The notes under the pieces were generated by a model, which ran no database searches, had not been told where the DNA came from, and saw nothing but the letters and a program-made list of their open reading frames with translations. Positions 14,447-34,033 of a DNA stretch of 64,000 nucleotides are shown here, piece by piece. Within the stretch, counting starts at the first letter, position 1. The number at the start of each line of letters is the position of its first letter. The stretch spans positions 67,401 to 131,400 of the forward strand of contig JANQJP010000030.1 in assembly GCA_028281575.1 (NCBI GenBank), read 5' to 3'. The DNA is from Cellvibrionaceae bacterium. Lineage in GTDB: Bacteria > Pseudomonadota > Gammaproteobacteria > Pseudomonadales > Cellvibrionaceae. The translations under genes were made by a program, and so were the position numbers.

Positions 14447-15358
14447 TTAATTGAAATAGCTGACTATTTCTTCAAAGTTTTCTTTCGCTTCATCAAAACC
14501 AATATTGTCTTCGTCATCCGCATAGGACATTGCCTCAACAAAATGCGCATATTCTCTTTGGTATTCGTCATCTTCGCCTAATGAAGTAATCGCTGATTTC
14601 ATCGAATCAACGAAGCTTCCTTTGGTATCACGTTTTCCTGTTTGCTGATCTTCTTCAAAGGAAGAAAATGCAGTTTCCAGAAAAAGCCCCTTATTTTCAT
14701 CCACAACTATTTTCAATGCGCACAGGTCATGGAGATGCCGGATCATTGCTGAATCATCGTTTTCATCACTACGATCACGCTTTAATATTCTCCAGGTCAA
14801 TGCACTTAACTTATCGGACGCAGTTTCAACAGGAGAAAGATAGAGTATTTTAGTTTCAGAAGAGCCATCAGTGAACTGTGATACAAATGATTGAATTTCT
14901 CGGATCTCCGGCTCAAGACGAGGCTGTGTAAAACTAAACTCGACCTGTAATCCCGCTCGAAGCGAAGCATGTTCAAACTGCTTTTTCTCGTAGGATAAAG
15001 GAAATTTTATGTAGTTACTGGCTTTGGCAATATCTGATTCATCAAGTGAAACAAAGTCACAACTATTTATCTTTTCAATTAGCTGGGTTCGGTATTCAGA
15101 TCTCATTTTTCGAAGTTGATTACCCGAAGTTTCAATTTCATATCGACAACGAAAATCTAAGTCTTCTGAAAACCTTTGGAGAATGCCAAACCCTTTTGAG
15201 AGACTCGTACCACCAGAGAAAATAGTGGTAATATCGGGAGAAGAAAAATCGGCAATCAACGACAGCGCTTGAACTGAATACCAATCTTTTTCGACAAAAG
15301 CTGGATCGACACCGAGCTCCGTCGCGATCTCTAGAACGACGTCTGGATCAAGAGACAT
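14447..15358 (-). CDS. AbiEii/AbiGii-family nucleotidyltransferase toxin (type IV TA).
   Basis: Motifs EKDWY...FSGGTSLSKGFG...RFSEDLDF are typical of the DUF1814/AbiEii nucleotidyltransferase. Confidence 0.8.
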   Translation of the reverse strand: MSLDPDVVLEIATELGVDPAFVEKDWYSVQALSLIADFSSPDITTIFSGGTSLSKGFGILQRFSEDLDFRCRYEIETSGNQLRKMRSEYRTQLIEKINSCDFVSLDESDIAKASNYIKFPLSYEKKQFEHASLRAGLQVEFSFTQPRLEPEIREIQSFVSQFTDGSSETKILYLSPVETASDKLSALTWRILKRDRSDENDDSAMIRHLHDLCALKIVVDENKGLFLETAFSSFEEDQQTGKRDTKGSFVDSMKSAITSLGEDDEYQREYAHFVEAMSYADDEDNIGFDEAKENFEEIVSYFN

Positions 15359-16780: not shown

Positions 16781-17368
16781 TTGCGCGCCATGAATGCGCT
16801 TGTCCTCTACATCGCTTCTTTTGTGCACGCCTACCTCCGTATTATCAAGCCCGGCGGCGTTAAAGCCCTGGCTGCAGAAAATGCCGCGTTAAGGCATCAA
16901 CTGGCCATTATCATACGTGGCAGAAAGCGAGCCCCGAACCTTGAGCTAAGGGATCGCATTCTCTTAGGTCTCATGATCGATCTCATCAAAGATAAGCGAT
17001 TAAACAAGGTTGCCGTATTATTAAAACCTAAAACGCTGCTACGGTGGCAAGCCAGCTTACGTTTGCTTGAGATTGCAGAAATAAAATCGATTCCAGGTAC
17101 GCCAATATCACATCCCTTTATTGAACGATTGATTGGTACTGTACGACGAGAATATTTAGATAATGTGCTTTTTGGGAATGCAACTGACTTGCAGAAAAAG
17201 CTGGACCGTTTCAAACGTTACTACAACACTCATCGAACACACTATTCCCTTAAACATCACACGCCTCAATGTATGATGGAAAATAAAGCGGTGAAACCGT
17301 TAGATATTCACAATTATTCCTGGAAACCTGCTTGTCGAGGTTTGTTTCAAATTTCCATCGCAGCTTAA
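16781..17368 (+). pseudogene. Decayed transposase (integrase-core, DDE-type) remnant of a second IS family.
   Basis: N-terminal ENAALRHQLA coiled-coil typical of IS3/IS481 transposases is joined directly to a C-terminal rve-like segment (PISHPFIERLIGTVRREYLD). The catalytic core is missing. Confidence 0.55.
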
Positions 17369-23932: not shown

Positions 23933-24991
23933 ATGAGCAGCGTCAAATTGAATAAATTACCACCAACTCAAGAACTGGAAACACCAGCTATTCTGAGAGC
24001 ACTGGTTGACGCACATAGGCACTTGGCTGAACTCAAAGGTGTCGCCAAAACTATCCCGAACGAAGGCATTTTAATATCGACGCTTTCACTTCAGGAAGCT
24101 CAAAGCAGCTCTGAAATTGAAAATATTATCACCACTCAAGATGCGCTTTATAAACAAGAGCTGCAGACGAGCGTATCTGATCCCGTGGCGAAAGAAGTTG
24201 CCTATTACGCTGCCGCATTACGATCAGGCTTCGACAAAGTGAAGCAACAAGACGCGCTTACTTTAAATACCATCATGGAAGTTCAGCAAACGCTTGAAGG
24301 AAACAGAGCAGGCTTCAGAAAAATACCCGGCACTGTGCTTAAAAATGACCGAACAGGCGAAGTTGTATTTGAACCTCCTTCACCCGAGTTAGTGCCTCAA
24401 TATATGTCAGACCTCGAGTCGTTTATTAACGCGGAGCAAAACCTCGACCCGTTAGTTTGCATGGCACTTATACATCATCAGTTTGAAACTATTCATCCTT
24501 TTTACGATGGCAATGGTCGCTCTGGCCGTATCGTTAATATCCTTTACTTACTGCTGAAAGGTCTCTTAGACACACCGATCCTATATTTGAGCCGGTACAT
24601 CAACCAAACCAAAGATGAGTACTACACAGAACTTCAAAACGTTCGTGACACAAATGAGTGGGAAGCTTGGCTTCTCTATATGCTTAGAGGTGTGAGCTCA
24701 ACAGCGATACACACCATCGATCTAGTTCAAAAGATCCAGAAGCTGTTACTCGAAATAAAGCAAGAAATCCGTGACAAACACAAATTTTACAGCCAAGACC
24801 TCATAAATAATTTATTTCGCCACCCATACACTAAAGTCGCTTTTCTAGAAAAAGACCTTGGCGTATCTCGTGCAACAGCCACTCGATACTTAGATGCTCT
24901 CTCAGATGATGGAACTCTCCAAAAGCATAAGCTCGGTAGAGAAAGCTTCTATATGAATCAAAGGCTCATCGGTGTGCTGTTTAATATGTAA
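23933..24991 (+). CDS. Fic/DOC family protein (class II, with internal inhibitory motif).
   Basis: Canonical HPFYDGNGRSGR (HPFx[D/E]GNGR). N-terminal SSEIEN matches the SxxxE[G/N] inhibitory helix. C-terminal winged-helix region. Confidence 0.85.
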   Translation: MSSVKLNKLPPTQELETPAILRALVDAHRHLAELKGVAKTIPNEGILISTLSLQEAQSSSEIENIITTQDALYKQELQTSVSDPVAKEVAYYAAALRSGFDKVKQQDALTLNTIMEVQQTLEGNRAGFRKIPGTVLKNDRTGEVVFEPPSPELVPQYMSDLESFINAEQNLDPLVCMALIHHQFETIHPFYDGNGRSGRIVNILYLLLKGLLDTPILYLSRYINQTKDEYYTELQNVRDTNEWEAWLLYMLRGVSSTAIHTIDLVQKIQKLLLEIKQEIRDKHKFYSQDLINNLFRHPYTKVAFLEKDLGVSRATATRYLDALSDDGTLQKHKLGRESFYMNQRLIGVLFNM

Positions 24992-25354: not shown

Positions 25355-25429
25355 GGGCCGTTAGTTCAACGGTTAGAACCCTGGCCTCATAAGCCAGTTA
25401 CGAGAGTTCGACTCTCTCACGGCCCACCA
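25355..25429 (+). tRNA. tRNA-Met or Ile2 (anticodon CAT).
   Basis: Acceptor gggccgt/acggccc, anticodon arm ctggc-ctcataa-gccag, T-loop gttcgac, encoded CCA. Confidence 0.75.
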
Positions 25430-25789
25430 AATTTAGGAAATCAACAGGAAAAAGAGATTTATTTTAATTGAGGCTTAGAACATTTTTTTATAGATGAATA
25501 GTGTGATTTAACCGGTAGGGAAATTTTGAATTTTAATCAATTTTTCTCCGATGTCCCCTTCCCGAAATTTTGCCATATGCTGCAATAGGGAATTGCTCAC
25601 CCTAAAGAAAAATAACGCTATATAATATTCGGGAATACACCCAAAAAATCACCAAAAATTAAATTTGAAAAGAAAAAAAACAGCGCGTATCGTTTAAAAC
25701 AGATTCGCAACACGAACAAAAAACAGTAAGTAAAAAATTATGAAATTTAACTATCAGCAACATAGCAAGCATTTTTATTTATTGGGCTG

Positions 25790-25950
25790 GCCCACACCAT
25801 CCATAGATACAAATGTACTCCGTAGTGGGCTAGAACGTCCCTGCGTAACTTTTGGTGATAGCAAACTAATGTAAGCAGCTTTCGATAACGGAAGGCTGTG
25901 CCTTCCGGTGAATTAGAGAAACCCCGGTTGGCAACAATCGGGGTTTTTTT
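25790..25950 (+). ncRNA. Candidate small RNA with intrinsic terminator.
   Basis: Several stable hairpins (gcccac/gtgggc, ggaagg/ccttcc) end in ccccg-N-cgggg plus T7. No ORF. Confidence 0.3.
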
Positions 25951-26289
25951 ATGCCCACGGATGGGCGGTATAACGCAAGAGCCATGGATGGCGTTAGCGT
26001 ACGTTTTAGGAAGAACGAATTCGCGAAAGCTGGATGCTAAGTAGCGGAATTTTATGGAGTAGTACTCGCACGGATTGCGATTTTTGTTTCTAGCAATCGG
26101 AATTGCTAAACGCGCAATGGATGTGCGGAAACAATTTTATTTAGGTGTGATACCCACCGACACGGTATCGGTTTTTTAACAATGTGGTCGCTTTTTTTGG
26201 CAGGTAGCTGCTTTCCCCTTTTAATAAGGGCAAAGCCCTCGGCGTCTAACTGATTAGACATAGGTGCCTTTCCTATTCTGCCAACCAAT

Positions 26290-26364
26290 GTCCCTATGGT
26301 CTAGTGGTGAGGACTCCTGACTTTCTATCAGGCAGCGCCGGTTCGAGTCCGGCTAGGGATACCA
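26290..26364 (+). tRNA. tRNA-Glu (TTC).
   Basis: Anticodon arm cctga-ctttcta-tcagg, T-arm gccggttcgagtccggc, CCA. Confidence 0.7.
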
Positions 26365-26371
26365 AATTTTT

Positions 26372-26596
26372 GGGCATGCAGGCGAGAATGGAGAACCACT
26401 ACCAAAAACGATTAGGTTAAGGGTAGCCGGGTAAAACCGGAGGTTACTGAAATAAGCTATTACGCATGGTTGAGGATGCAGGCTCGATGCTCTACGGCGG
26501 GTGTCAGCTGGCGCGCGTTTTCCAAGTAATTAGCTTGGCTGAGAGTAATGCCTCAGTTGTTTCCTTTCGCGGGTTCGAATCCCGCCATGTCCACCA
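26372..26596 (+). ncRNA. Interrupted tRNA-like gene: canonical T-arm/acceptor/CCA with the cognate 5' acceptor strand 215 nt upstream.
   Basis: 3' end is gcgggttcgaatcccgc-catgtcc-a-cca. The only complementary 5' strand is gggcatg at 26372 (one G-U pair). About 150 nt of extra structured sequence lies between them. Confidence 0.4.
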
Positions 26597-26602
26597 ATTG
26601 TT

Positions 26603-26677
26603 ACGTCGATAGCTTAATGGAAAAGCGTTGGTCTCCAAAACCAGAAGATGTGGGTTCAAATCCTACTCGGTGTGCCA
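26603..26677 (+). tRNA. tRNA-Trp (CCA).
   Basis: Anticodon loop ctccaaa, T-arm gtgggttcaaatcctac, acceptor with two G-U pairs, CCA. Confidence 0.65.
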
Positions 26678-26728
26678 AATAAAAGCGGGATAGTGAAGCA
26701 GAAAGGAGGGGCTCCCGCAACCAAATTT

Positions 26729-26804
26729 GTAGAGATAGCTCAAATGGCGAGAGCGCCTGATTGAAGCCCAGGAGATCCCGGTTCAATTCCGGTTCTCTAC
26801 ACCA
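26729..26804 (+). tRNA. tRNA-Phe (GAA).
   Basis: Acceptor gtagaga/tctctac, anticodon loop ttgaagc (A31·C39 mismatch), CCA. Confidence 0.6.
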
Positions 26805-26810
26805 ATTTAC

Positions 26811-26886
26811 TGCTACATAGCTTAACTGGTAAAGCGCCCGGCTGTTAACCGGGAGGATGCAGGTTCGAAGCCAGCTGTAGCAGCCA
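26811..26886 (+). tRNA. tRNA-Asn (GTT).
   Basis: Anticodon arm cccgg-ctgttaa-ccggg, CCA. Confidence 0.7.
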
Positions 26887-26891
26887 AATTA

Positions 26892-26975
26892 GGGGAAGTA
26901 CCCAAGTGGCAAAGGGATCGCACTGTAAATGCGAAATATGTTGAGACGTAGGTTCGAGTCCTACCTTCCCCACCA
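26892..26975 (+). tRNA. tRNA-Tyr (GTA), class II.
   Basis: 84 nt. Anticodon arm tcgca-ctgtaaa-tgcga, long variable arm, T-arm gtaggttcgagtcctac, CCA. Confidence 0.75.
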
Positions 26976-26982
26976 AAAACCA

Positions 26983-27073
26983 GGAAGTGTGGCCGAGCGG
27001 TGAAGGCACCGGTTTGCTAAACCGGCAAGTGACGAAAGTTGCTTCAAGAGTTCGAATCTCTTCGCTTCCGCCA
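26983..27073 (+). tRNA. tRNA-Ser (GCT), class II.
   Basis: 91 nt. ggaagtgtggccgagcgg... is Ser-like. Anticodon arm ccggt-ttgctaa-accgg, CCA. Confidence 0.8.
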
Positions 27074-27085
27074 ATTTGATTACTT

Positions 27086-27175
27086 GGAAGGTGCGGTCCA
27101 TTGGCGGACAACCGGTCTTGAAAACCGGCGAGTTGTAGAGATACGGCTGGGGTTCAACTCCTCCACCTTCTTCCA
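27086..27175 (+). tRNA. tRNA-Ser (TGA), class II, with non-canonical D- and T-stems.
   Basis: Anticodon arm ccggt-cttgaaa-accgg is identical to E. coli Ser-TGA. Discriminator U, CCA. Confidence 0.55.
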
Positions 27176-27188
27176 ACTTTTTAATAAT

Positions 27189-27265
27189 GTGCCGGTGGTG
27201 GAACTGGAATACACAACAGGTTTAAGCCCTGTTCGCTGAGGGTTCGAGTCCCTCTCGGCACACCA
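27189..27265 (+). tRNA. tRNA-Leu-like (TAA) with short variable arm.
   Basis: Anticodon arm acagg-tttaagc-cctgt. 77 nt with a 5-nt variable loop, A73, CCA. Confidence 0.5.
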
Positions 27266-27270
27266 ATAAT

Positions 27271-27347
27271 GGCCAGCTGATGGAATTGGCATACATGCGT
27301 GCCTTAGAAGCACGATTTTCCGAGTTCGAATCTCGGGCTGGCTACCA
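27271..27347 (+). tRNA. tRNA-Leu-like (TAG) with short variable arm.
   Basis: Leu-type D-arm (tggaattggcatacatgcg), anticodon arm cgtgc-cttagaa-gcacg, 77 nt, A73, CCA. Confidence 0.5.
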
Positions 27348-27353
27348 ATTTAA

Positions 27354-27430
27354 GCAGGTGTGGCGCAATAGGCAGACGCGCTGGATTCAAATCCCAGATG
27401 TTGTGAGTTCGACTCTCACCACCTGCACCA
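27354..27430 (+). tRNA. tRNA-Leu-like (CAA) with short variable arm.
   Basis: D-arm gtggcgcaataggcagacgcg is nearly identical to the bacterial Leu D-arm. Anticodon loop ttcaaat, variable loop only 5 nt, A73, CCA. Confidence 0.55.
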
Positions 27431-27435
27431 AAACT

Positions 27436-27634
27436 CGTGGAGTAGTTTAATCGTTTGCAGTTTTTTGCTCCTGCAAAAACTGCATTTCCACCATCCTTGG
27501 TGGTCAATGCGATTTTCATAAAATTGGTGTTGGTGGTTCACAAATTTTTCAGGAAAAAATTTGGGCGTCTGTATAGACGGTTGCGAAGCAACTGACTACA
27601 TGGATGTAGTCATCAACCCCACCCTCCACGACCA
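27436..27634 (+). tRNA. tRNA(CAT)-like gene carrying a D-region insertion and a T-arm insertion (199 nt).
   Basis: Acceptor cgtggag/ctccacg + A + CCA. Anticodon arm cgatt-ttcataa-aattg. T-stem ggtgg/ccacc and T-loop ttcacaa are followed by a ~75-nt insert. A ~70-nt insert lies between the acceptor and the anticodon arm. Confidence 0.45.
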
Positions 27635-27643
27635 ATTAAAAAT

Positions 27644-27718
27644 AGCAGTGTGGTGTAACTGGCAACACACGTGACTTTGACTCACGTATTTCAGGTTCGA
27701 ATCCTGGCGCTGCTGCCA
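27644..27718 (+). tRNA. tRNA-Gln (TTG).
   Basis: Anticodon arm cgtga-ctttgac-tcacg, G73, CCA. Confidence 0.7.
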
Positions 27719-27730
27719 AATAAAAACTAT

Positions 27731-27881
27731 GCACGAGTGGCAGAGAGGGTATGCGCGGGATTGCAAACCCCGTATTACGCCGGTTAGACAAAATTGTAGG
27801 AACAATTTTGGGATGCGCTTTGCACAGGTTGCGAAGCAACTTAACACACGGATGTGTTAACCAATCCGGCCTCGTGCTCCA
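27731..27881 (+). tRNA. tRNA-Cys (GCA) with an ~80-nt insertion after the T-loop (151 nt).
   Basis: Acceptor gcacgag/ctcgtgc + U73 (Cys identity) + CCA. Anticodon loop ttgcaaa. T-stem gccgg/ccggc is split by the structured insert. Confidence 0.55.
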
Positions 27882-27886
27882 ATTTC

Positions 27887-27962
27887 GGGGGCCCATGTAC
27901 CAAGGGGGCGACGATGCTTTGCAAGCATTGTGTGGTCGGTTCGATTCCGACGGTCTCCACCA
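27887..27962 (+). tRNA. tRNA-Ala (TGC).
   Basis: G3·U70 identity pair is present. Anticodon loop tttgcaa, T-arm gtcggttcgattccgac, A73, CCA. The D-arm is non-canonical. Confidence 0.6.
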
Positions 27963-28419
27963 GAACTAAACCTTTTAGGTTTATTGGGTATGGCCAAGAT
28001 AGCACGGTGTAAATCGTGTAAAGGGGGGACGCCTGCGTAACTCCGCCAGAGCAATCTGGTCAATCCATGCAAGCCGAGCCTGCAGAGGCTTCATCACAAG
28101 ATGGAGATATCAGCAATGATGTAGAGCGTCTGAATGAGTTTAAGCACCTTTGAGTAAAAAACTTGGAGGAAATGCAAGCTCATAAATCAGCAAGTGGTGT
28201 TGGATCACGCTCAAACCAATACATTTACCTGAGACAGGCAAAGGGTAGCGCAAAGGTGCGATCCGCAAGAGAGTGCATTTGTGCAGTTGATAAGTGTCGG
28301 AAGAAAAACCGTCGCTTTGAAAACCGTTAAGTAAGCGGTAGCTGAAAGACATGTGGCGAGTGGCATTTTGTCGATCAAAAGTCGATAAAACCACAGGACG
28401 TGCTCGCTGCAGCAGGTTG

Positions 28420-28492
28420 TTGAAATTAGCTCAACTGGTAGAGCAATTGACTCGTAATCAATAGGCTGCTGGTTCAATCCCAGCATTTCAAA
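28420..28492 (+). tRNA. tRNA-Thr (CGT).
   Basis: Acceptor ttgaaat/atttcaa (all A/T), D-arm tagctcaactggtagagc, anticodon arm attga-ctcgtaa-tcaat. No encoded CCA. Confidence 0.65.
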
Positions 28493-28846
28493 CCCAAACA
28501 GAAAAATGCAAAGACACGTCCGGTGTTTTGTGAAAATGGCTTAATGCCTTGCTACGCAAGTAGAACAAGGCTGATTAACCGGCCGCAAGCTGGAAGATCA
28601 TCTGTCACAACGTGCACGTTGGTCGCAAACCTTTAGAGCTCGCAAGGCTCGCGGTAACGAAAGGGCAGAAAAACAAAACACGACAAGTGAATCGCCACAC
28701 TTTTAAAAAAAGGCAGCCATGTCGAATTACATCCTTGTCCCCTGCGGGAAATGATGTGGATACGAAATTAACTTGTGGTCGCAAGCCACAAGGTAAGGTT
28801 TCAAAAGGTTCGACGCAAACGCTGTAGTCTCAAGCGTTTAATTTTC

Positions 28847-28925
28847 GGTTCGTTAGCTTAGCCTGATTTAAAGCACTCGGTAGTCAGCCGAGGGATCACG
28901 GGTTTAAATCCCGTACGAACCGCCA
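28847..28925 (+). tRNA. tRNA-Asp (GTC).
   Basis: Acceptor ggttcgt/acgaacc, anticodon arm ctcgg-tagtcag-ccgag (A33 is unusual), G73, CCA. Confidence 0.6.
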
Positions 28926-28926
28926 A

Positions 28927-29000
28927 GCGGCATTGACCGAATGGCGAGGTACCTGCCTTCCAAGCAGAGGAACAGGGTTCGATTCCCTGATGCCGCTCCA
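28927..29000 (+). tRNA. tRNA-Gly (TCC).
   Basis: Acceptor gcggcat/atgccgc, anticodon loop cttccaa, U73, CCA. Confidence 0.7.
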
Positions 29001-29031
29001 ATTTATTTTTCATCTATTAAAAATTTTCTTT

Positions 29032-29109
29032 CCGGGTTTAGCTCAGTTTGCGAAGAGCGCTTGCTTTGGGAGCAAGAGGCCCTAGGTTCGAATCCTAGTA
29101 CCCGGACCA
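29032..29109 (+). tRNA. tRNA-Pro (TGG).
   Basis: D-arm tagctcagtt..., anticodon arm cttgc-tttggga-gcaag, A73, CCA. Confidence 0.7.
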
Positions 29110-29116
29110 AATTAAT

Positions 29117-29330
29117 GGACGTGTAGCTCAATGCCCTCGGGTGCAACTGGGTGGCAAATTTTTGCTCCTGCAAAGTTTTCATTTCCGCCATCCATGGCGG
29201 TCAGCACCTGTTTTACACACAGGATACGGTGGTTCACAACTTTGCAGGAGTAAGAGTTGGACGCCCAAACGGGCGGTCGCGAAGCGATTATTTACAGGGA
29301 TGTAAATAACAATTCCATTCACGTCTACCA
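29117..29330 (+). tRNA. tRNA-Val(TAC)-like gene with D-region and T-arm insertions (214 nt).
   Basis: Acceptor ggacgtg/cacgtct + A + CCA. Anticodon arm cctgt-tttacac-acagg. T-loop ttcacaa is followed by a ~75-nt insert. A D-region insert shares ttttgctcctgcaaa and a covarying hairpin with the gene at 27436. Confidence 0.45.
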
Positions 29331-29349
29331 CTTCAAATTTTAAAAAAAT

Positions 29350-29502
29350 GCTCACGTCGCTTAACGGCAAAGCACTTCCCTTGTAAGGAAGATGATGACG
29401 GTTCAAATAATTTGACAGGATCAAATTAAGGCGTCCTTTAGGGCGGTTACGAAGTAACTGTTTTACATGGATGTAAAACATCAATCCAGTCCGTGAGCTC
29501 CA
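29350..29502 (+). tRNA. tRNA-Thr(TGT)-like with an ~80-nt insertion after the T-loop (153 nt).
   Basis: Acceptor gctcacg/cgtgagc + U + CCA. D-stem gctt/aagc. Anticodon arm cttcc-cttgtaa-ggaag. T-loop ttcaaat, then the insert. Confidence 0.5.
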
Positions 29503-29506
29503 ATTT

Positions 29507-29582
29507 GCTCGATTAGTTTAATTGAAGAAAACGCTGGCGTGCGAAGCCGGTAATGCAGGTTTGAATCCTGCATCGAGCGCCA
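29507..29582 (+). tRNA. tRNA-Arg (GCG; unusual anticodon).
   Basis: Acceptor gctcgat/atcgagc, anticodon arm ctggc-gtgcgaa-gccgg, G73, CCA. Confidence 0.55.
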
Positions 29583-29594
29583 ATTTATTTTTTT

Positions 29595-29669
29595 CCGCTC
29601 GTGGCGTAATGGTAGCGCATCGGCCTTTTAAGCCGACAGGTGTAGGTTCAAGTCCTACCGGGCGGACCA
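29595..29669 (+). tRNA. tRNA-Lys (TTT).
   Basis: Anticodon arm tcggc-cttttaa-gccga, A73, CCA. Confidence 0.75.
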
Positions 29670-29676
29670 ATTCTTT

Positions 29677-29752
29677 GCTCCCGTAGCTCAATGAATAGAG
29701 CACTTGTCTTCGAAACAAGTTGATGCTGGTTTGAATCCAGCCGGGAGTGCCA
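29677..29752 (+). tRNA. tRNA-Arg (TCG).
   Basis: D-arm tagctcaatgaatagagc, anticodon arm cttgt-cttcgaa-acaag, G73, CCA. Confidence 0.65.
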
Positions 29753-29776
29753 ATTAACGATAAGAGAATACTTAGG

Positions 29777-29849
29777 GGTGGCTATAGCATAGTGCCAATG
29801 CCCCTGGTTGTGATCCAGGTTGACATGGGTTCGAATCCCATTAGTCACC
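29777..29849 (+). tRNA. tRNA-His (GTG) with G-1:C73, embedded in a 13-bp inverted-repeat extension.
   Basis: Extra 5' G pairs with C73 (His identity). Anticodon arm cctgg-ttgtgat-ccagg. Flanks gagaatacttagg / cctaagtattctc are perfect inverted repeats. No CCA. Confidence 0.7.
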
Positions 29850-29886
29850 CCTAAGTATTCTCAATTACTCAATCAAGGAGAGCATC

Positions 29887-30180
29887 ATGCGCATAGCACT
29901 AAGTAAACGCGAGTGTTATCACGCAGATATTTATTGCAGTGATAGCAACTCCGCGAAAAAAATACTAAGAGAAAATCCGATTTCCATATTAGCCGTGGAT
30001 TTTTATTTGTATGGCCGTGAAAACGGTACTCATGTCTTAGCATGGGCTAGGACAAAAAAACTACTTCCACATTATGTAGTGGTAACAGAAAGCGACCGCA
30101 ATAAACGTGTTCTATTAGCTGAAGAGCTCACGAAAGGAGGTTACAACTCTGCTGATGGAACAACATTTATAAAACATTAA
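29887..30180 (+). CDS. Hypothetical small protein inside the tRNA array.
   Basis: Strong SD (aaggaga) 8 nt upstream of ATG. 97 aa. Fold unknown; weak resemblance to receiver-like domains. Confidence 0.45.
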   Translation: MRIALSKRECYHADIYCSDSNSAKKILRENPISILAVDFYLYGRENGTHVLAWARTKKLLPHYVVVTESDRNKRVLLAEELTKGGYNSADGTTFIKH

Positions 30181-30181
30181 T

Positions 30182-30258
30182 GTCCTCGTGGCTCAACTGG
30201 AGAGCGCAACGGATTTCTACTCCGTAGGTTGTGGGTTCGAATCCTACCGGGGACGCCA
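30182..30258 (+). tRNA. tRNA-Arg (TCT).
   Basis: D-arm tggctcaactggagagc, anticodon arm acgga-tttctac-tccgt, G73, CCA. Confidence 0.65.
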
Positions 30259-30284
30259 GTATAGCAACCAGTAGGAGCAACGAG

Positions 30285-30842
30285 ATGGGCAGAGTATTGC
30301 GCTTAGATATTTCCGGAACGCCAACTTCTTGGCTTTCGCGGAAAGAAGCGGCCGTTTTATATGTTAAAAATTTAGTGCAGTGGGAACTTGGAGATAAAAG
30401 TTTAGTTATCTTCGGAGGAACAAACCGATTAACCGGAAAACAATCTTCGTTGGAAATCAGCCCAGTTATTGCAACTCGAGGTGATACTCATCGAAGAAAA
30501 TTGGTTTCCGGATTTAATAATCGAATGCTATTCCGTCGAGACAATTATCACTGCATGTACTGTGGTGGAAAATTTAGTCACGTAGAATTGACACGAGATC
30601 ACGTAGTACCGCGTGCACAAGGAGGATTAGATATTTGGGAAAATGTTGTGGCAGCCTGTGGAAGGTGCAATCACTTTAAAGCGGACCGCACACCTGAACA
30701 AGCGGGTATGAAGTTATTAGCCATACCTTTTAGACCAAATATATTTGAATCCATGTACTTAGCACAACACAAAGTACTAGCAGATCAAATGGAATACTTG
30801 GAAAAACAATTTTCAGGTAAAAGAACTTGGAAAGCGGCGTAA
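30285..30842 (+). CDS. HNH endonuclease.
   Basis: DHVVPRAQGG...WENVVAACGRCNHFK HNH/ββα-Me motif with a Cys zinc knuckle (CMYCGG). SD aggag upstream of the ATG at 30285. The longer ORF annotated from 30231 would overlap the tRNA. Confidence 0.8.
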   Translation: MGRVLRLDISGTPTSWLSRKEAAVLYVKNLVQWELGDKSLVIFGGTNRLTGKQSSLEISPVIATRGDTHRRKLVSGFNNRMLFRRDNYHCMYCGGKFSHVELTRDHVVPRAQGGLDIWENVVAACGRCNHFKADRTPEQAGMKLLAIPFRPNIFESMYLAQHKVLADQMEYLEKQFSGKRTWKAA

Positions 30843-30975
30843 ATTACTTACGTCGTATTCCATACAGAAGTTTATATCTTCGCCGAGAGTTAGCGGAACT
30901 GGTTCTGTACGCCAGTCTGGCACAAGCGTTGTTAACGTGCTGTGTACCAATTCGAAAGCGGGAATAAATTGGATG

Positions 30976-31052
30976 GTTTTTGTAGCTCATTCGGGTAGAG
31001 CAATAGACTCATAATCTATCGGTAGCGGGTTCGATTCCCGTCAAAAACACCA
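30976..31052 (+). tRNA. tRNA-Met or Ile2 (CAT), second copy.
   Basis: Acceptor gtttttg/caaaaac, D-arm tagctcattcgggtagagc, anticodon arm ataga-ctcataa-tctat, A73, CCA. Confidence 0.65.
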
Positions 31053-31421
31053 CGTCGTCTCCAAAACGACTCTATGGGAAGGCCGAGAGGCTTGAGGTTC
31101 GAGTCCTCACAAGACTTTCACTCTTGTTTAAAATCTACGAGAGGTCCATGATCTTGAATTGGGTAGGTCAGTAGCGAAAGCCATTGGCTGATCACAATTC
31201 AGGGTGCCGACAATATAGCCGGGTTAGATGGGTCGAATTGGCACGATGACATTCTATGAATGTGATGCGTTTATACACCACCTCAATATAAAAGGATGAT
31301 TGTTGGGTGAGTGATAAATAAATCCACTCCTCTAGAATGAACTCCTGCCGATTCCAAATGTGATCCCCCTGTATTCGAGGGTGGGCCTCGCCATTAATTT
31401 TTTAAGGCAAAAGGAAATACG

Positions 31422-32579
31422 ATGTTCTTTTTAAAAACAGTTGATATTGCCGATAACGAACGAGCGTTGCTCTTTGATCGAGATCGGCTACAAAAAGTAC
31501 TTGGCCCAGGGCGACACCGCTTGTCTACTTTTGGGCGAAAGTTAACAGTAGAAAAGTTTGACATTACTTCAGTGCGCTTTGAGCACCCAAAGCTCAAGTT
31601 TTTGGTGCGTCAGTACCAAGCGCTTCTTGAAGACTATGTAGATGTGTTTGAGCTAAATGATAGTGAGGTCGGTGTTATCTACCGCGATCAAAAAATCTCG
31701 GATATTCTACCTCCAAGTAATTTATTGGTTACTTGGAAAGGTGCTGAGGACGTTCGAGTAGATATCGTCGATATCACTAAAAACTATGAAATCAAAGATG
31801 AACTAGTTGCACTTTTAGGTCGAGGCGTAAAAATCGGTACAAGCCGACAAGTTGTGAATGCCATTAGCTATGCAGAGGTACCAGATGAACATGTGGGGCT
31901 TCTACAAGTTAACGGTAAGTTAGAGCGTGTACTTGAGACCGGCGCTTACGCCTTCTGGAAATACAACCGGTCAATTGTAGTAAAGCTGCTTGATTTACGT
32001 GTACAGACCATTGATGTAAGCGGCCAAGAAATCTTGACTAAAGATCGTGTGAGCTTGCGTATTAACTTGTCAGCGAGCTACAACATTGTCGATCCAGAAA
32101 GCGTTGCACTAAAACTGAAAGATTACGCGAACTTTCTGTACTTAGAGCTTCAATTGCGATTGCGAGAAGCCGTGGGCACAAAACTATTAGATGAATTACT
32201 TGAAGATAAGGATGCCCTCAACTCAGTGATCGCGAATGGCGTTAGTGAGAAACTAGCCGAGTTTGGTATAAAGTTGCGAAGTGTGGGTGTAAAAGACATT
32301 ATTCTACCCGGTGATATGAAAGTGATCCTAAATCAAGTTGTCGAAGCTCAAAAAGAAGCCGAAGCTAACGTGATTAAACGACGAGAAGAAACTCAAGCAA
32401 TGCGATCACTACATAACACCGCAAAAGTAATGGAAAACAACCCAGTGCTATTGCGATTGAAGGAGCTTGAAGCGCTAGAACGAATCACTGCAAAAATCGA
32501 TAAGATTTCTGTATATGGTGGTTTAGATAGTGTACTCAATGACATGGTCAAACTAGCTCCTTCCAAACCGGCTCAATAA
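31422..32579 (+). CDS. SPFH/band-7 (stomatin/prohibitin/flotillin/HflK-C-like) domain protein.
   Basis: Central SPFH-like region followed by a long coiled-coil Ala/Glu-rich segment. SD aaggaaa upstream. Confidence 0.75.
   Translation: MFFLKTVDIADNERALLFDRDRLQKVLGPGRHRLSTFGRKLTVEKFDITSVRFEHPKLKFLVRQYQALLEDYVDVFELNDSEVGVIYRDQKISDILPPSNLLVTWKGAEDVRVDIVDITKNYEIKDELVALLGRGVKIGTSRQVVNAISYAEVPDEHVGLLQVNGKLERVLETGAYAFWKYNRSIVVKLLDLRVQTIDVSGQEILTKDRVSLRINLSASYNIVDPESVALKLKDYANFLYLELQLRLREAVGTKLLDELLEDKDALNSVIANGVSEKLAEFGIKLRSVGVKDIILPGDMKVILNQVVEAQKEAEANVIKRREETQAMRSLHNTAKVMENNPVLLRLKELEALERITAKIDKISVYGGLDSVLNDMVKLAPSKPAQ

Positions 32580-32785: not shown

Positions 32786-34033
<1,248 letters not shown>

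Follow-up and report, generated by a model that had tools for sequence, protein, structure and literature searches.

The stretch of DNA analysed here (the window, 64,000 nucleotides; positions 67,401 to 131,400 of the forward strand of contig JANQJP010000030.1) stems from assembly GCA_028281575.1 of a Cellvibrionaceae bacterium, and the subject of this analysis is a small insertion element that interrupts four transfer RNA (tRNA) genes in it. These genes belong to an accessory tRNA-array island in which ARAGORN called 23 tRNAs (25355-31052), all of them encoded on the plus strand and all with an encoded CCA. The four gaps left between these calls are the interrupted genes. Each of them shows the parts of a tRNA, namely an acceptor stem of 7 bp, an anticodon arm (CAT, GCA, TAC or TGT), a discriminator and CCA, and its T-arm is split by about 75 nt. 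An initial annotation, made from the letters alone, had described these four genes (CAT, Cys-GCA, Val-TAC, Thr-TGT) as interrupted in the T-arm, and both the ARAGORN gaps and direct reading bear this out. It had overlooked the D-loop inserts in the CAT and TAC genes, the GGA loops of CsrA/RsmA type and the relatives of the element that resemble small RNAs (sRNAs). The features are as follows; a slash marks an insertion junction and L-numbers denote loci from other assemblies.

25355-31052, plus strand: accessory tRNA-array island with 23 ARAGORN tRNAs, four interrupted tRNA genes, a GOLLD RNA, an RNA resembling transfer-messenger RNA (tmRNA) and an Rsm-like sRNA candidate
27436-27634, plus strand: tRNA(CAT) gene, Met/Ile2-like, D-loop and T-loop both interrupted
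27454-27505, plus strand: D-loop insert of the CAT gene, 52 nt, with UCC-loop hairpins and a weak antisense covariance-model match
27541-27615, plus strand: T-loop element of the CAT gene, 75 nt, TTCA/CAAATTT...GTCATCA/ACC, junction taken from the empty L092 allele
27731-27881, plus strand: tRNA-Cys(GCA) gene, T-loop interrupted, empty orthologs known
27789-27863, plus strand: T-loop element of the Cys gene, 75 nt, TTAGA/CAAAATTG...TTAACCA/AT, placed by covariance model
29117-29330, plus strand: tRNA-Val(TAC) gene, D-loop and T-loop both interrupted
29134-29202, plus strand: D-loop insert of the Val gene, 69 nt, with a CCGCCA-UCCA-UGGCGG hairpin
29237-29311, plus strand: T-loop element of the Val gene, 75 nt, TTCA/CAACTTTG...AATAACA/ATT, placed by covariance model and the L089 alignment break
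29350-29502, plus strand: tRNA-Thr(TGT) gene, T-loop interrupted, empty orthologs known
29406-29482, plus strand: T-loop element of the Thr gene, 77 nt, TTCA/AATAATTTG...AACATC/AAT, placed by covariance model and the L089 alignment break

The four T-loop inserts constitute a family with compensatory pairing, as had been proposed on the basis of hairpin sequences that proved to be correctly quoted. The motif CGAAGYRAY-N(3-12)-ACANGGATGT is present exactly 4 times in the 64-kb window, as compared with 0.00 in shuffled sequences. The inserts share 75% column identity in their alignment, and RNAalifold predicted 27 base pairs for them, 11 of which involve double compensatory changes. In the CAT gene, the P1 loop of the element reads cAGGA, the P3 loop GAA and the P4 hairpin gactaca-TGGA-tgtagtc, and this copy reached covariance-model scores of 102.7 and 86.4 bits. 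When we searched the array by covariance model with the filters switched off, no copies other than these four were detected, save for marginal antisense signals at the D-loop inserts.

For the family as a whole, we aligned 25 sequences with MAFFT, an alignment that was not fitted to any structure. The element is 75-78 nt long (75-77 nt in the window), non-coding and consists of four hairpins (P1-P4). Here, we found that 90.8% of the cells of the alignment pair and that 20 of 26 base pairs were changed on both sides; when the partner columns were slid as a control, pairing fell to 32-40%. Invariant in all 25 copies are the GGA of the P1 loop, the C-GAA-G loop of P3 and ACA-NGGA-UGU of P4, and the base preceding GGA varies in both the P1 and the P4 loop. 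A further GGAC follows directly after P1 in most family copies and, among the window copies, in the Val insert only. Covariance-model scores range from 65 to 103 bits. The covariation indicates that the hairpins are under selection. Whether they serve a functional RNA or the mobility of the DNA is a distinction that covariation alone does not make.

The insertion site had been placed between nt 60 and 61 of the tRNA, and the empty alleles described below move it to 57/58. In these alleles, the junctions are seamless and lie within the T-loop (Val TTCA/ATT, Thr TTCA/AAT, Cys TTTGA/AT, Met TTCGA/CT). Position 57/58 is the sole T-loop position that fits all five T-loop events, with an ambiguity of 1-3 nt. 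When the inserts were deleted at the corrected junction, ARAGORN accepted 4 of 4 genes and the restored T-loops measured 7 nt (TTCAACC, TTCAATT, TTCAATC, TTAGAAT), whereas deletion at 60/61 yielded 2 of 4. The insert coordinates of the initial annotation therefore had to be shifted to 27541-27615, 27789-27863, 29237-29311 and 29406-29482. Two of the T-loops it had regarded as intact 7-nt loops (TTCACAA and TTAGACA) combine T-loop and element sequence.

The element (CAAA...NCA) sits after TTCRA or TTCA and before AT, and the left flanks observed were TTCGA, TTTGA, TTCA, TTCAA, AATGA and GTCCA. Among the seven junctions read directly, we found neither terminal inverted repeats nor a target-site duplication. 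Since the junction ambiguity of 1-3 nt varies in length, it does not constitute a true target duplication. The element is not confined to the T-arm, as had been assumed; it was also found in a D-loop (AATGA/ATA) and inverted inside another copy. Because these insertions carry the motif as well, it is a short DNA motif of about T-Y-R-A/A-T, and not the tRNA fold, that sets the insertion site. As the T-loop consensus, GTTCRAAT, includes this motif, the T-loop is a recurrent target. Independent insertions would therefore reach the same T-loop position (nt 57-59) of many tRNA genes via the motif core GTTCRA/AT. A DNA target motif in the most conserved tRNA loop thus accounts for the splitting of unrelated tRNA genes at the "same" structural position, without recourse to a mechanism at the RNA level. 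The short motif is nearly palindromic, and the eight T-loop insertions all have sense orientation.

To identify filled and empty alleles, we compared the array with related islands (L082, L084, L087-L092), which were found via homologs of a 97-amino-acid (aa) open reading frame (ORF) of the array. L089 shares 96.5% identity with the window over 27912-29236, and the other islands share 76-90%. When L089 was aligned with the window by BLAST, the alignment ended at 29236 and restarted at 29310 in the Val gene; it broke again at 29408 and restarted at 29483 in the Thr gene. The alleles compare as follows.

tRNA-Met (25355): empty in the window (TTCGACT); filled in L082 (TTCGA, 77 nt, CT)
tRNA(CAT): D-loop and T-loop inserts in the window; both present in L082, neither in L092 (L092:704-779, T-loop TTCAAGA)
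tRNA-Cys: filled in the window; empty in L082 (1788-1863) and L092 (874-948), T-loop TTTGAAT
tRNA-Val: D-loop and T-loop inserts in the window; D-loop insert only in L089 (1196-1334), intact T-loop TTCAATT
tRNA-Thr-TGT: filled in the window; empty in L089 (1354-1429) and L092 (1474-1549), T-loop TTCAAAT
tRNA-Arg-TCG: empty in the window; sense copy in the D-loop in L082 (AATGA/.../ATA)

It can be seen that gain or loss of the element is seamless and takes place within a few per cent of sequence divergence. Copies also affect one another. In L091, the 5' end of a Val gene is joined to the 3' part of an element and this, in turn, to the 3' end of a tRNA-Arg-GCG gene, which indicates that the Arg-GCG T-loop once held an element and that recombination between copies deletes the genes between them. 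At a site downstream of tRNA-Ser-GGA, L109 carries a simple copy, and in the orthologous L054 and L115 a second copy lies inverted inside the first one, between P1 and GGAC, where the other strand reads GTCCA/AAT. Some of the host genes of L082 and L091 have been fused or destroyed, and neighbouring genes in the related arrays are decaying.

Insertions of other kinds were also observed. Besides its D-loop sense copy, the tRNA-Arg-TCG gene of L082 (1985-2216) carries an unrelated T-arm insertion of about 95 nt (gcccttcgggtccgg...), and the tRNA-Asp gene of the same locus (1867-1985) is disrupted by an antisense piece resembling P4; more than one kind of small insertion thus colonises these arrays. 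In the window, a 39-nt minihelix (gcggga...tcccgc-a-acca) lies between tRNA-Trp and tRNA-Phe at 26683-26721. The same minihelix in L092 (1-170) is interrupted by an insertion of about 125 nt in which the element occurs in antisense (54 bits).

To define the distribution of the family, we followed the initial proposal to build a covariance model and constructed model R1 from the four window copies. With one genome taken per GTDB species, a pattern scan yielded 27 loci with 38 model matches, nearly all of which stem from Alteromonadaceae (Paraglaciecola, Aliiglaciecola, Glaciecola, Lacimicrobium, Fluctibacter) and Rheinheimera. Metagenomes contributed 23 further loci of the same kinds, and the family is present in more than 40 independent assemblies. 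In Rfam, no family matched the inserts at E<=10 (cmscan, 27300-29700); only RsmV was reported, at 9.9 bits (E 8.9), on one P4 hairpin. A permissive Rfam scan of the rest of the array and of the Rheinheimera loci revealed no family matching the element either. In Rfam 15 and in the literature searched (tRNA-like CsrA sponges, bacterial T-loop insertions, tRNA arrays with GOLLD), no description of the element was found. We conclude that the family is previously undescribed, structurally well supported and absent from Rfam. Among viral sequences, all 53 IMG/VR loci with the P3-P4 pattern were chance matches according to the covariance model; the sole partial P3-P4 match there (L013, 7111-7143) lies in the zinc-finger/RuvC-III coding region of a TnpB gene (..CQSCEATHDRDVLAAQNI..) and was judged coincidental, since the other partial matches lie outside TnpB.

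The copy number is low, with 1-3 loci per genome, and this includes one 4.7-Mb single-contig genome. In Aliiglaciecola and Paraglaciecola, tandem units of about 185 nt follow tRNA-Arg-CCG. In several species, each unit ends with a copy of the T-stem 3' strand, the acceptor 3' strand and the GCCA of this tRNA; an acceptor-like stem closes each unit, and the anticodon arm is missing from all of them. Further copies are located after tRNA-Ser-GGA or in the vicinity of tRNA-Phe, within fragments that resemble the T-arm of the neighbouring tRNA. In Rheinheimera, the units form part of sRNA-like loci with intrinsic terminators at their end. One of these loci, convergent with tRNA-Leu-CAG, contains at least 12 GGA motifs over about 430 nt, and a single-unit locus with terminator, located downstream of a coding sequence, shares about 97-98% identity between two species as compared with 81-92% for the adjacent coding sequence. 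The window copies lie inside tRNA genes and carry no terminators. Throughout, the element is confined to tRNAs of accessory arrays, redundant copies and tRNA fragments, and no sole-copy tRNA gene was seen to carry it.

The two D-loop inserts have TTTTTGCTCCTGCAAA and CATTTCCRCCATCCWTGGYGGTC in common. The reverse complement of the CAT insert starts with GACCACCAAGGATGGTGG, which matches the P4 region of unit L074:7885-7974 at 17 of 18 positions; a P1-like hairpin (TTTTTGC-AGGA-GCAAAAA) comes next. Judged by these sequence matches, both inserts appear to be related to the element family in antisense. On the tRNA strand, their UCC loops are complementary to the GGA loops of the T-loop inserts. 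In the Val gene, CTCCTGCAAAGT of the D-loop insert is complementary to ACTTTGCAGGAG at the start of the T-loop insert (12 nt perfect), and RNAfold predicts a 21-bp helix between the two. They represent independent events, since the Val gene of L089 has the D-loop insert but not the T-loop insert. Such pairing may, for example, mask CsrA sites or rebuild the tRNA elbow.

The second property of the element concerns its loops. Each copy presents two hairpin-loop GGA motifs, one in the P1 loop, (N)NGGA, and one in P4 (ACA-NGGA-UGU), that match the high-affinity CsrA consensus. This consensus, determined by systematic evolution of ligands by exponential enrichment, has been published as RUACARGGAUGU, and P4 matches it at 10-11 of 12 positions. 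Tandem CsrB-like sRNAs (Aln1a-c) have been described in Alteromonas (A. macleodii) (PMC5864184). The array itself contains a candidate of this kind:

25950-26182, plus strand: Csr/Rsm-like sRNA candidate, seven NGGA-loop hairpins followed by an intrinsic terminator

This candidate lies between tRNA-Met and tRNA-Glu, has a partly deleted ortholog in L082 and gave no match in Rfam. Its seven NGGA hairpins (e.g., GCCCA-CGGA-UGGGC, GCCA-UGGA-UGGC, GCGCA-AUGGA-UGUGC) compare with about 0.4 expected from the window background. Lysobacteraceae-like contigs (L055, 250-800, minus strand; also L103 and L110) carry a region with multiple GGA hairpins that ends in a terminator and is probably an unannotated Rsm-type sRNA; it has a P3-P4 pair in common with the element (GGTCGC-GAA-GCGACC, ACACA-UGGA-UGUG). 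The consensus match of P1 and P4, the conserved decoy-like Rheinheimera loci, the sRNA candidate of the island, the Lysobacteraceae locus and Aln1a-c together suggest that the transcribed element probably binds CsrA/RsmA. In that case, the interrupted tRNAs would act as CsrA decoys framed by a tRNA, either through exaptation or as a by-product.

The known decoy sRNAs (CsrB/CsrC, RsmX/Y/Z, Aln1a-c) resemble the element in that they expose loop GGA in a CA-N-GGA-UG context, comprise tandem units, end in terminators in some cases and occur in Gammaproteobacteria with CsrA. In contrast to them, the element has a fixed architecture of four hairpins, among them a non-GGA hairpin (C-GAA-G loop), it inserts as a mobile unit and it resides inside tRNA genes or minihelices. 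The curated models (CsrB, CsrC, RsmX/Y/Z/V/W, TwoAYGGAY) gave no family match in Rfam, and the likeness to Aln1a-c is one of description.

Taken together, we favour the reading that this family represents a new, small, hairpin-rich mobile DNA element that inserts seamlessly at about T-Y-R-A/A-T and has reached four genes of a horizontally mobile tRNA-array island here, and we consider it probable, including the proposals that insertion inactivates the tRNA, that an enzyme acts in trans and that the transcript binds CsrA. Of the three possibilities named initially (intron-like, ribozyme-like, mobile), the mobile one is backed by seamless presence and absence and by the target motif; the other two are unsupported, with no counterpart in Rfam, and many host genes in the related arrays are destroyed. 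The mobilising enzyme would probably be of the single-strand, hairpin-recognising HUH type, as in IS200/IS605-like "peel-and-paste" transposition. What suggests this is the lack of inverted repeats and duplications, the end hairpins with the same loop, the specific left flank of 4-5 nt and the self-nesting. By analogy, the element appears to work like IS200/IS605 elements and not to be a member of them, because a transposase was not found in the genome fragments searched, the left end has no IS608-like guide and the copy number is unusually low. Palindrome-associated transposable elements (PATEs), which are miniature elements derived from IS200/IS605, and other HUH-mobilised hairpin elements (REP/REPIN) have in common with it the lack of terminal inverted repeats and duplications, hairpins at both ends, insertion 3' of a short sequence, seamless sites, and nesting and inversion. 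Unlike them, it comes with no TnpA, RAYT or TnpB that we could find, has no guide-tetranucleotide spacing at its left end and no GTAG motif, reaches very low copy numbers and targets tRNA loops. Classical miniature inverted-repeat transposable elements (MITEs) have terminal inverted repeats and target duplications of fixed length, whereas this element has neither. Even if the CsrA link fails, the family offers a compact model for seamless, hairpin-dependent insertion.

Several observations weigh against this reading. An IS200 TnpA probe (tblastn against the window and the loci, i.e. fragments of each genome) retrieved nothing relevant, and a plasmid database search with the Aliiglaciecola tandem unit gave no match; a CsrA probe (tblastn) also retrieved nothing relevant, and neither tblastn result is informative since only fragments of each genome were covered. 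P1 begins at the first base of the element and leaves no room for an IS608-type guide tetranucleotide, and the copy number is far below that of typical MITE, REP or PATE families. The window copies are only about 70-75% identical pairwise, so that their donors are unseen, though the gain of two of them (or their loss in L089) falls within about 3.5% divergence; precise excision in L089 and L092 is the alternative to insertion here. When we compared the CAT insert of the window with that of L082, where the filled gene is 91% identical, we found a compensatory change in P2 and decay elsewhere; the former hints at in-situ selection, for which a purely selfish element has no need. The sense-only orientation of the T-loop copies could reflect selection at the RNA level or a replication-strand bias in co-oriented genes. 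As to the CsrA component, pairing with the D-loop inserts could hide the GGA loops in the CAT and Val genes, and no GacA/UvrY box (TGTAAG-N6-CTTACA) was recognised by eye upstream of one Rheinheimera locus (L071).

In a rival explanation, the element would be a selected tRNA-framed CsrA/RsmA sponge, that is, first of all a Csr/Rsm module to which the tRNA or a tRNA-like minihelix lends RNase P/3' processing and stability and which spreads between T-arms by recombination or copy-choice on the GGTTCRA/ATCC flanks, with no dedicated transposase. This explanation, which we entertain tentatively, draws on the fit of the GGA loops to the CsrA consensus, on the Rheinheimera unit with terminator that is more conserved than the neighbouring coding sequence, on the closing stems and GCCA ends of the Aliiglaciecola/Paraglaciecola units in several species, on low copy number at syntenic loci, on the second GGA-hairpin sRNA candidate in the island and on the uniform orientation of the T-loop copies. 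However, flank homology cannot explain the sites outside the T-arm, as AATGA/ATA and GTCCA/AAT share only about 3-5 nt with the T-loop. Moreover, GGA is lost in some copies (P1 of the L082 Met insert reads AGGT, L091 reads GAGA), the D-loop inserts would mask the GGA loops in two genes and the CsrB/RsmX/RsmY/RsmZ models of Rfam find no match. The opposite view, a purely selfish DNA element whose NGGA loops and GCGAAGC-type hairpin are single-stranded DNA features recognised by its enzyme and whose CsrA likeness is coincidental, appears unlikely to us. The same loop motif recurs at both end hairpins (P1, P4), as in the paired ends of IS200/IS605, the GCGAAGC sequence in P3 is an exceptionally stable DNA mini-hairpin, and the element inserts into its own kind in either orientation while some copies decay; but a 10-11/12 match to RUACARGGAUGU, Rheinheimera loci with terminators and with extra GGA hairpins outside the element architecture, the single-unit locus that exceeds its flanking coding sequence in conservation and the low copy number all speak against this view. 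There is practically no room for the view that no element exists and that decaying pseudo-tRNAs resemble each other by chance or through an assembly artefact: the general decay in some related arrays is all that fits it, and it is refuted by the motif count (4 vs. 0 expected), the scores of 65-103 bits, more than 40 independent assemblies with exact junctions, the covariation in 25 copies and the L089 alignment breaks.

Removal of the insert at the RNA level, by self-cleavage and ligation or by an endonuclease together with an RNA ligase/RtcB, would leave four functional tRNAs that complete the amino-acid set of the array, and we regard this intron-like explanation as very improbable. Precise deletion does leave four canonical tRNAs, and the interrupted genes supply CAT, Cys, Val and Thr-UGU species that are otherwise absent from the array. 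Like introns of tRNA and tmRNA genes, among them bacterial group I introns in anticodon loops and archaeal non-canonical bulge-helix-bulge introns, the element breaks its host seamlessly at a fixed structural position and has plus and minus alleles, a pattern that resembles intron mobility or loss; relatives of the 97-aa ORF adjoin an RNA ligase (L087) and Tpt1 (L085), and the tmRNA gene of Clostridium botulinum has a group I intron in its T-loop. However, group I and II introns measure at least about 200 nt instead of 75-77 nt and are found in the anticodon loop, whereas the element occupies the T- or D-loop and has no group I core. We recognised neither a group I/II core (P3-P9, domains I-VI) nor features of self-cleavers, and at E<=10 no Rfam intron or small-ribozyme model (hammerhead, twister, pistol, hatchet, HDV-like, hairpin) matched in cmscan. 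A bulge-helix-bulge or a helix closing the element ends was not apparent in the RNAfold/RNAalifold structures, no formal scan for bulge-helix-bulge motifs having been made. To our knowledge, 75 nt is far below any self-splicing core, and we know of neither EndA in Gammaproteobacteria nor any splicing machinery in these bacteria. Furthermore, copies occur in antisense, in non-tRNA sequence and in tRNA fragments without an anticodon arm, sole-copy tRNA genes were never seen interrupted, and neighbouring genes are wrecked. Under the favoured reading of a mobile DNA element, the insert would thus stay in the RNA and the four tRNAs would most likely be inactivated for translation, which would be tolerable in an accessory array.

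A further, speculative version with a rather low chance of being right is that of a mobile CsrA/RsmA-decoy cassette, a regulatory RNA module that propagates itself and lands on tRNA T-loops, or, less likely, of an insert that is excised from the pre-tRNA as a T-loop intron. The decoy cassette would turn accessory tRNA genes, and tRNA fragments near core tRNA genes, into sources of tRNA-processed sponge RNAs, and an island carrying it could retune the global Csr regulon of its host. A tRNA-transcript-borne RNA sponge is known in E. coli (3'ETS-leuZ). It would be similar to the candidate decoy in being co-transcribed with tRNAs and in that its release is tied to tRNA processing; 3'ETS-leuZ is a spacer that pairs with sRNAs, whereas the candidate decoy is part of the tRNA body itself and its partner would be a protein. 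Excision by a hitherto undescribed bacterial pathway would make the insert the first bacterial T-loop intron of this size. The family joins two rarely meeting fields, that of Csr/Rsm decoy RNAs and that of miniature mobile elements with site specificity. Should the CsrA link prove true, portable sponges directed at a global regulator could travel with mobile islands and tRNA arrays. For tRNA annotation, a caution follows, as standard tRNA finders overlook all four interrupted genes.

As for the setting of the island, its flanks encode, according to Pfam, amylase/pullulanase, TonB, LysR, major facilitator superfamily (MFS) and phosphotransferase system (PTS) proteins, TonB-dependent receptors and tryptophan halogenases, together with insertion sequence (IS) fragments. 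This gene set is typical of a marine polysaccharide-degrading gammaproteobacterium and the island is chromosomal. A phage origin of the tRNA cluster was ruled out, since Pfam points to a bacterial chromosome and blastn against phages matched generic tRNAs only. The nearest homolog of one chromosomal protein (self excluded) shares 67% identity, which indicates that the host lineage is thinly sampled. Fragments of an IS3-type integrase core (rve) border the island region (16781-17368 and 32878-33657), which also contains an AbiEii toxin-like gene (14447-15358) and a Fic gene (23933-24991); in L084, too, a Fic gene lies upstream of the array. Such neighbours would fit a tRNA array that resides in a mobile or defence island.

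Two further RNAs were detected in the array. GOLLD RNA (Rfam RF02032, 199 bits) matched at 28351-28836 and probably starts at about 27963, with tRNA-Thr-CGT (28420-28494) inside it; the 390 nt without an ORF upstream of the match are probably the variable 5' half of GOLLD, and this region is near-identical in L089. At 26367-26600, we found a 234-nt RNA with tRNA-like ends (acceptor gggcatg/catgtcc with G3:U70, T-arm gcgggttcgaatcccgc, ACCA). It gave a weak full-length match to the tmRNA model of Rfam (25.3 bits; gathering score 47) and no ARAGORN call, and it may be a miniature island-borne tmRNA-like RNA.

The 97-aa ORF (29887-30180, weak cREC_REC match) forms a module with an HNH endonuclease and a Band_7/SPFH protein (window 29887-32579). 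This module lies at the 3' end of most related arrays (L082, L084, L087-L091), some of which lack one or more of its three genes. Homologs of the 97-aa protein adjoin an RNA ligase (PF09414) in Zooshikella (L087) and Tpt1 (PTS_2-RNA), NUDIX, PARG and NADAR proteins in Agarilytica (L085), which suggests an RNA-repair or ADP-ribose context. The listed HNH ORF (30231-30842, GTG at 30231) overlaps tRNA-Arg-TCT (30182-30258); as its homologs are 185 aa long, the true start probably lies near 30285.

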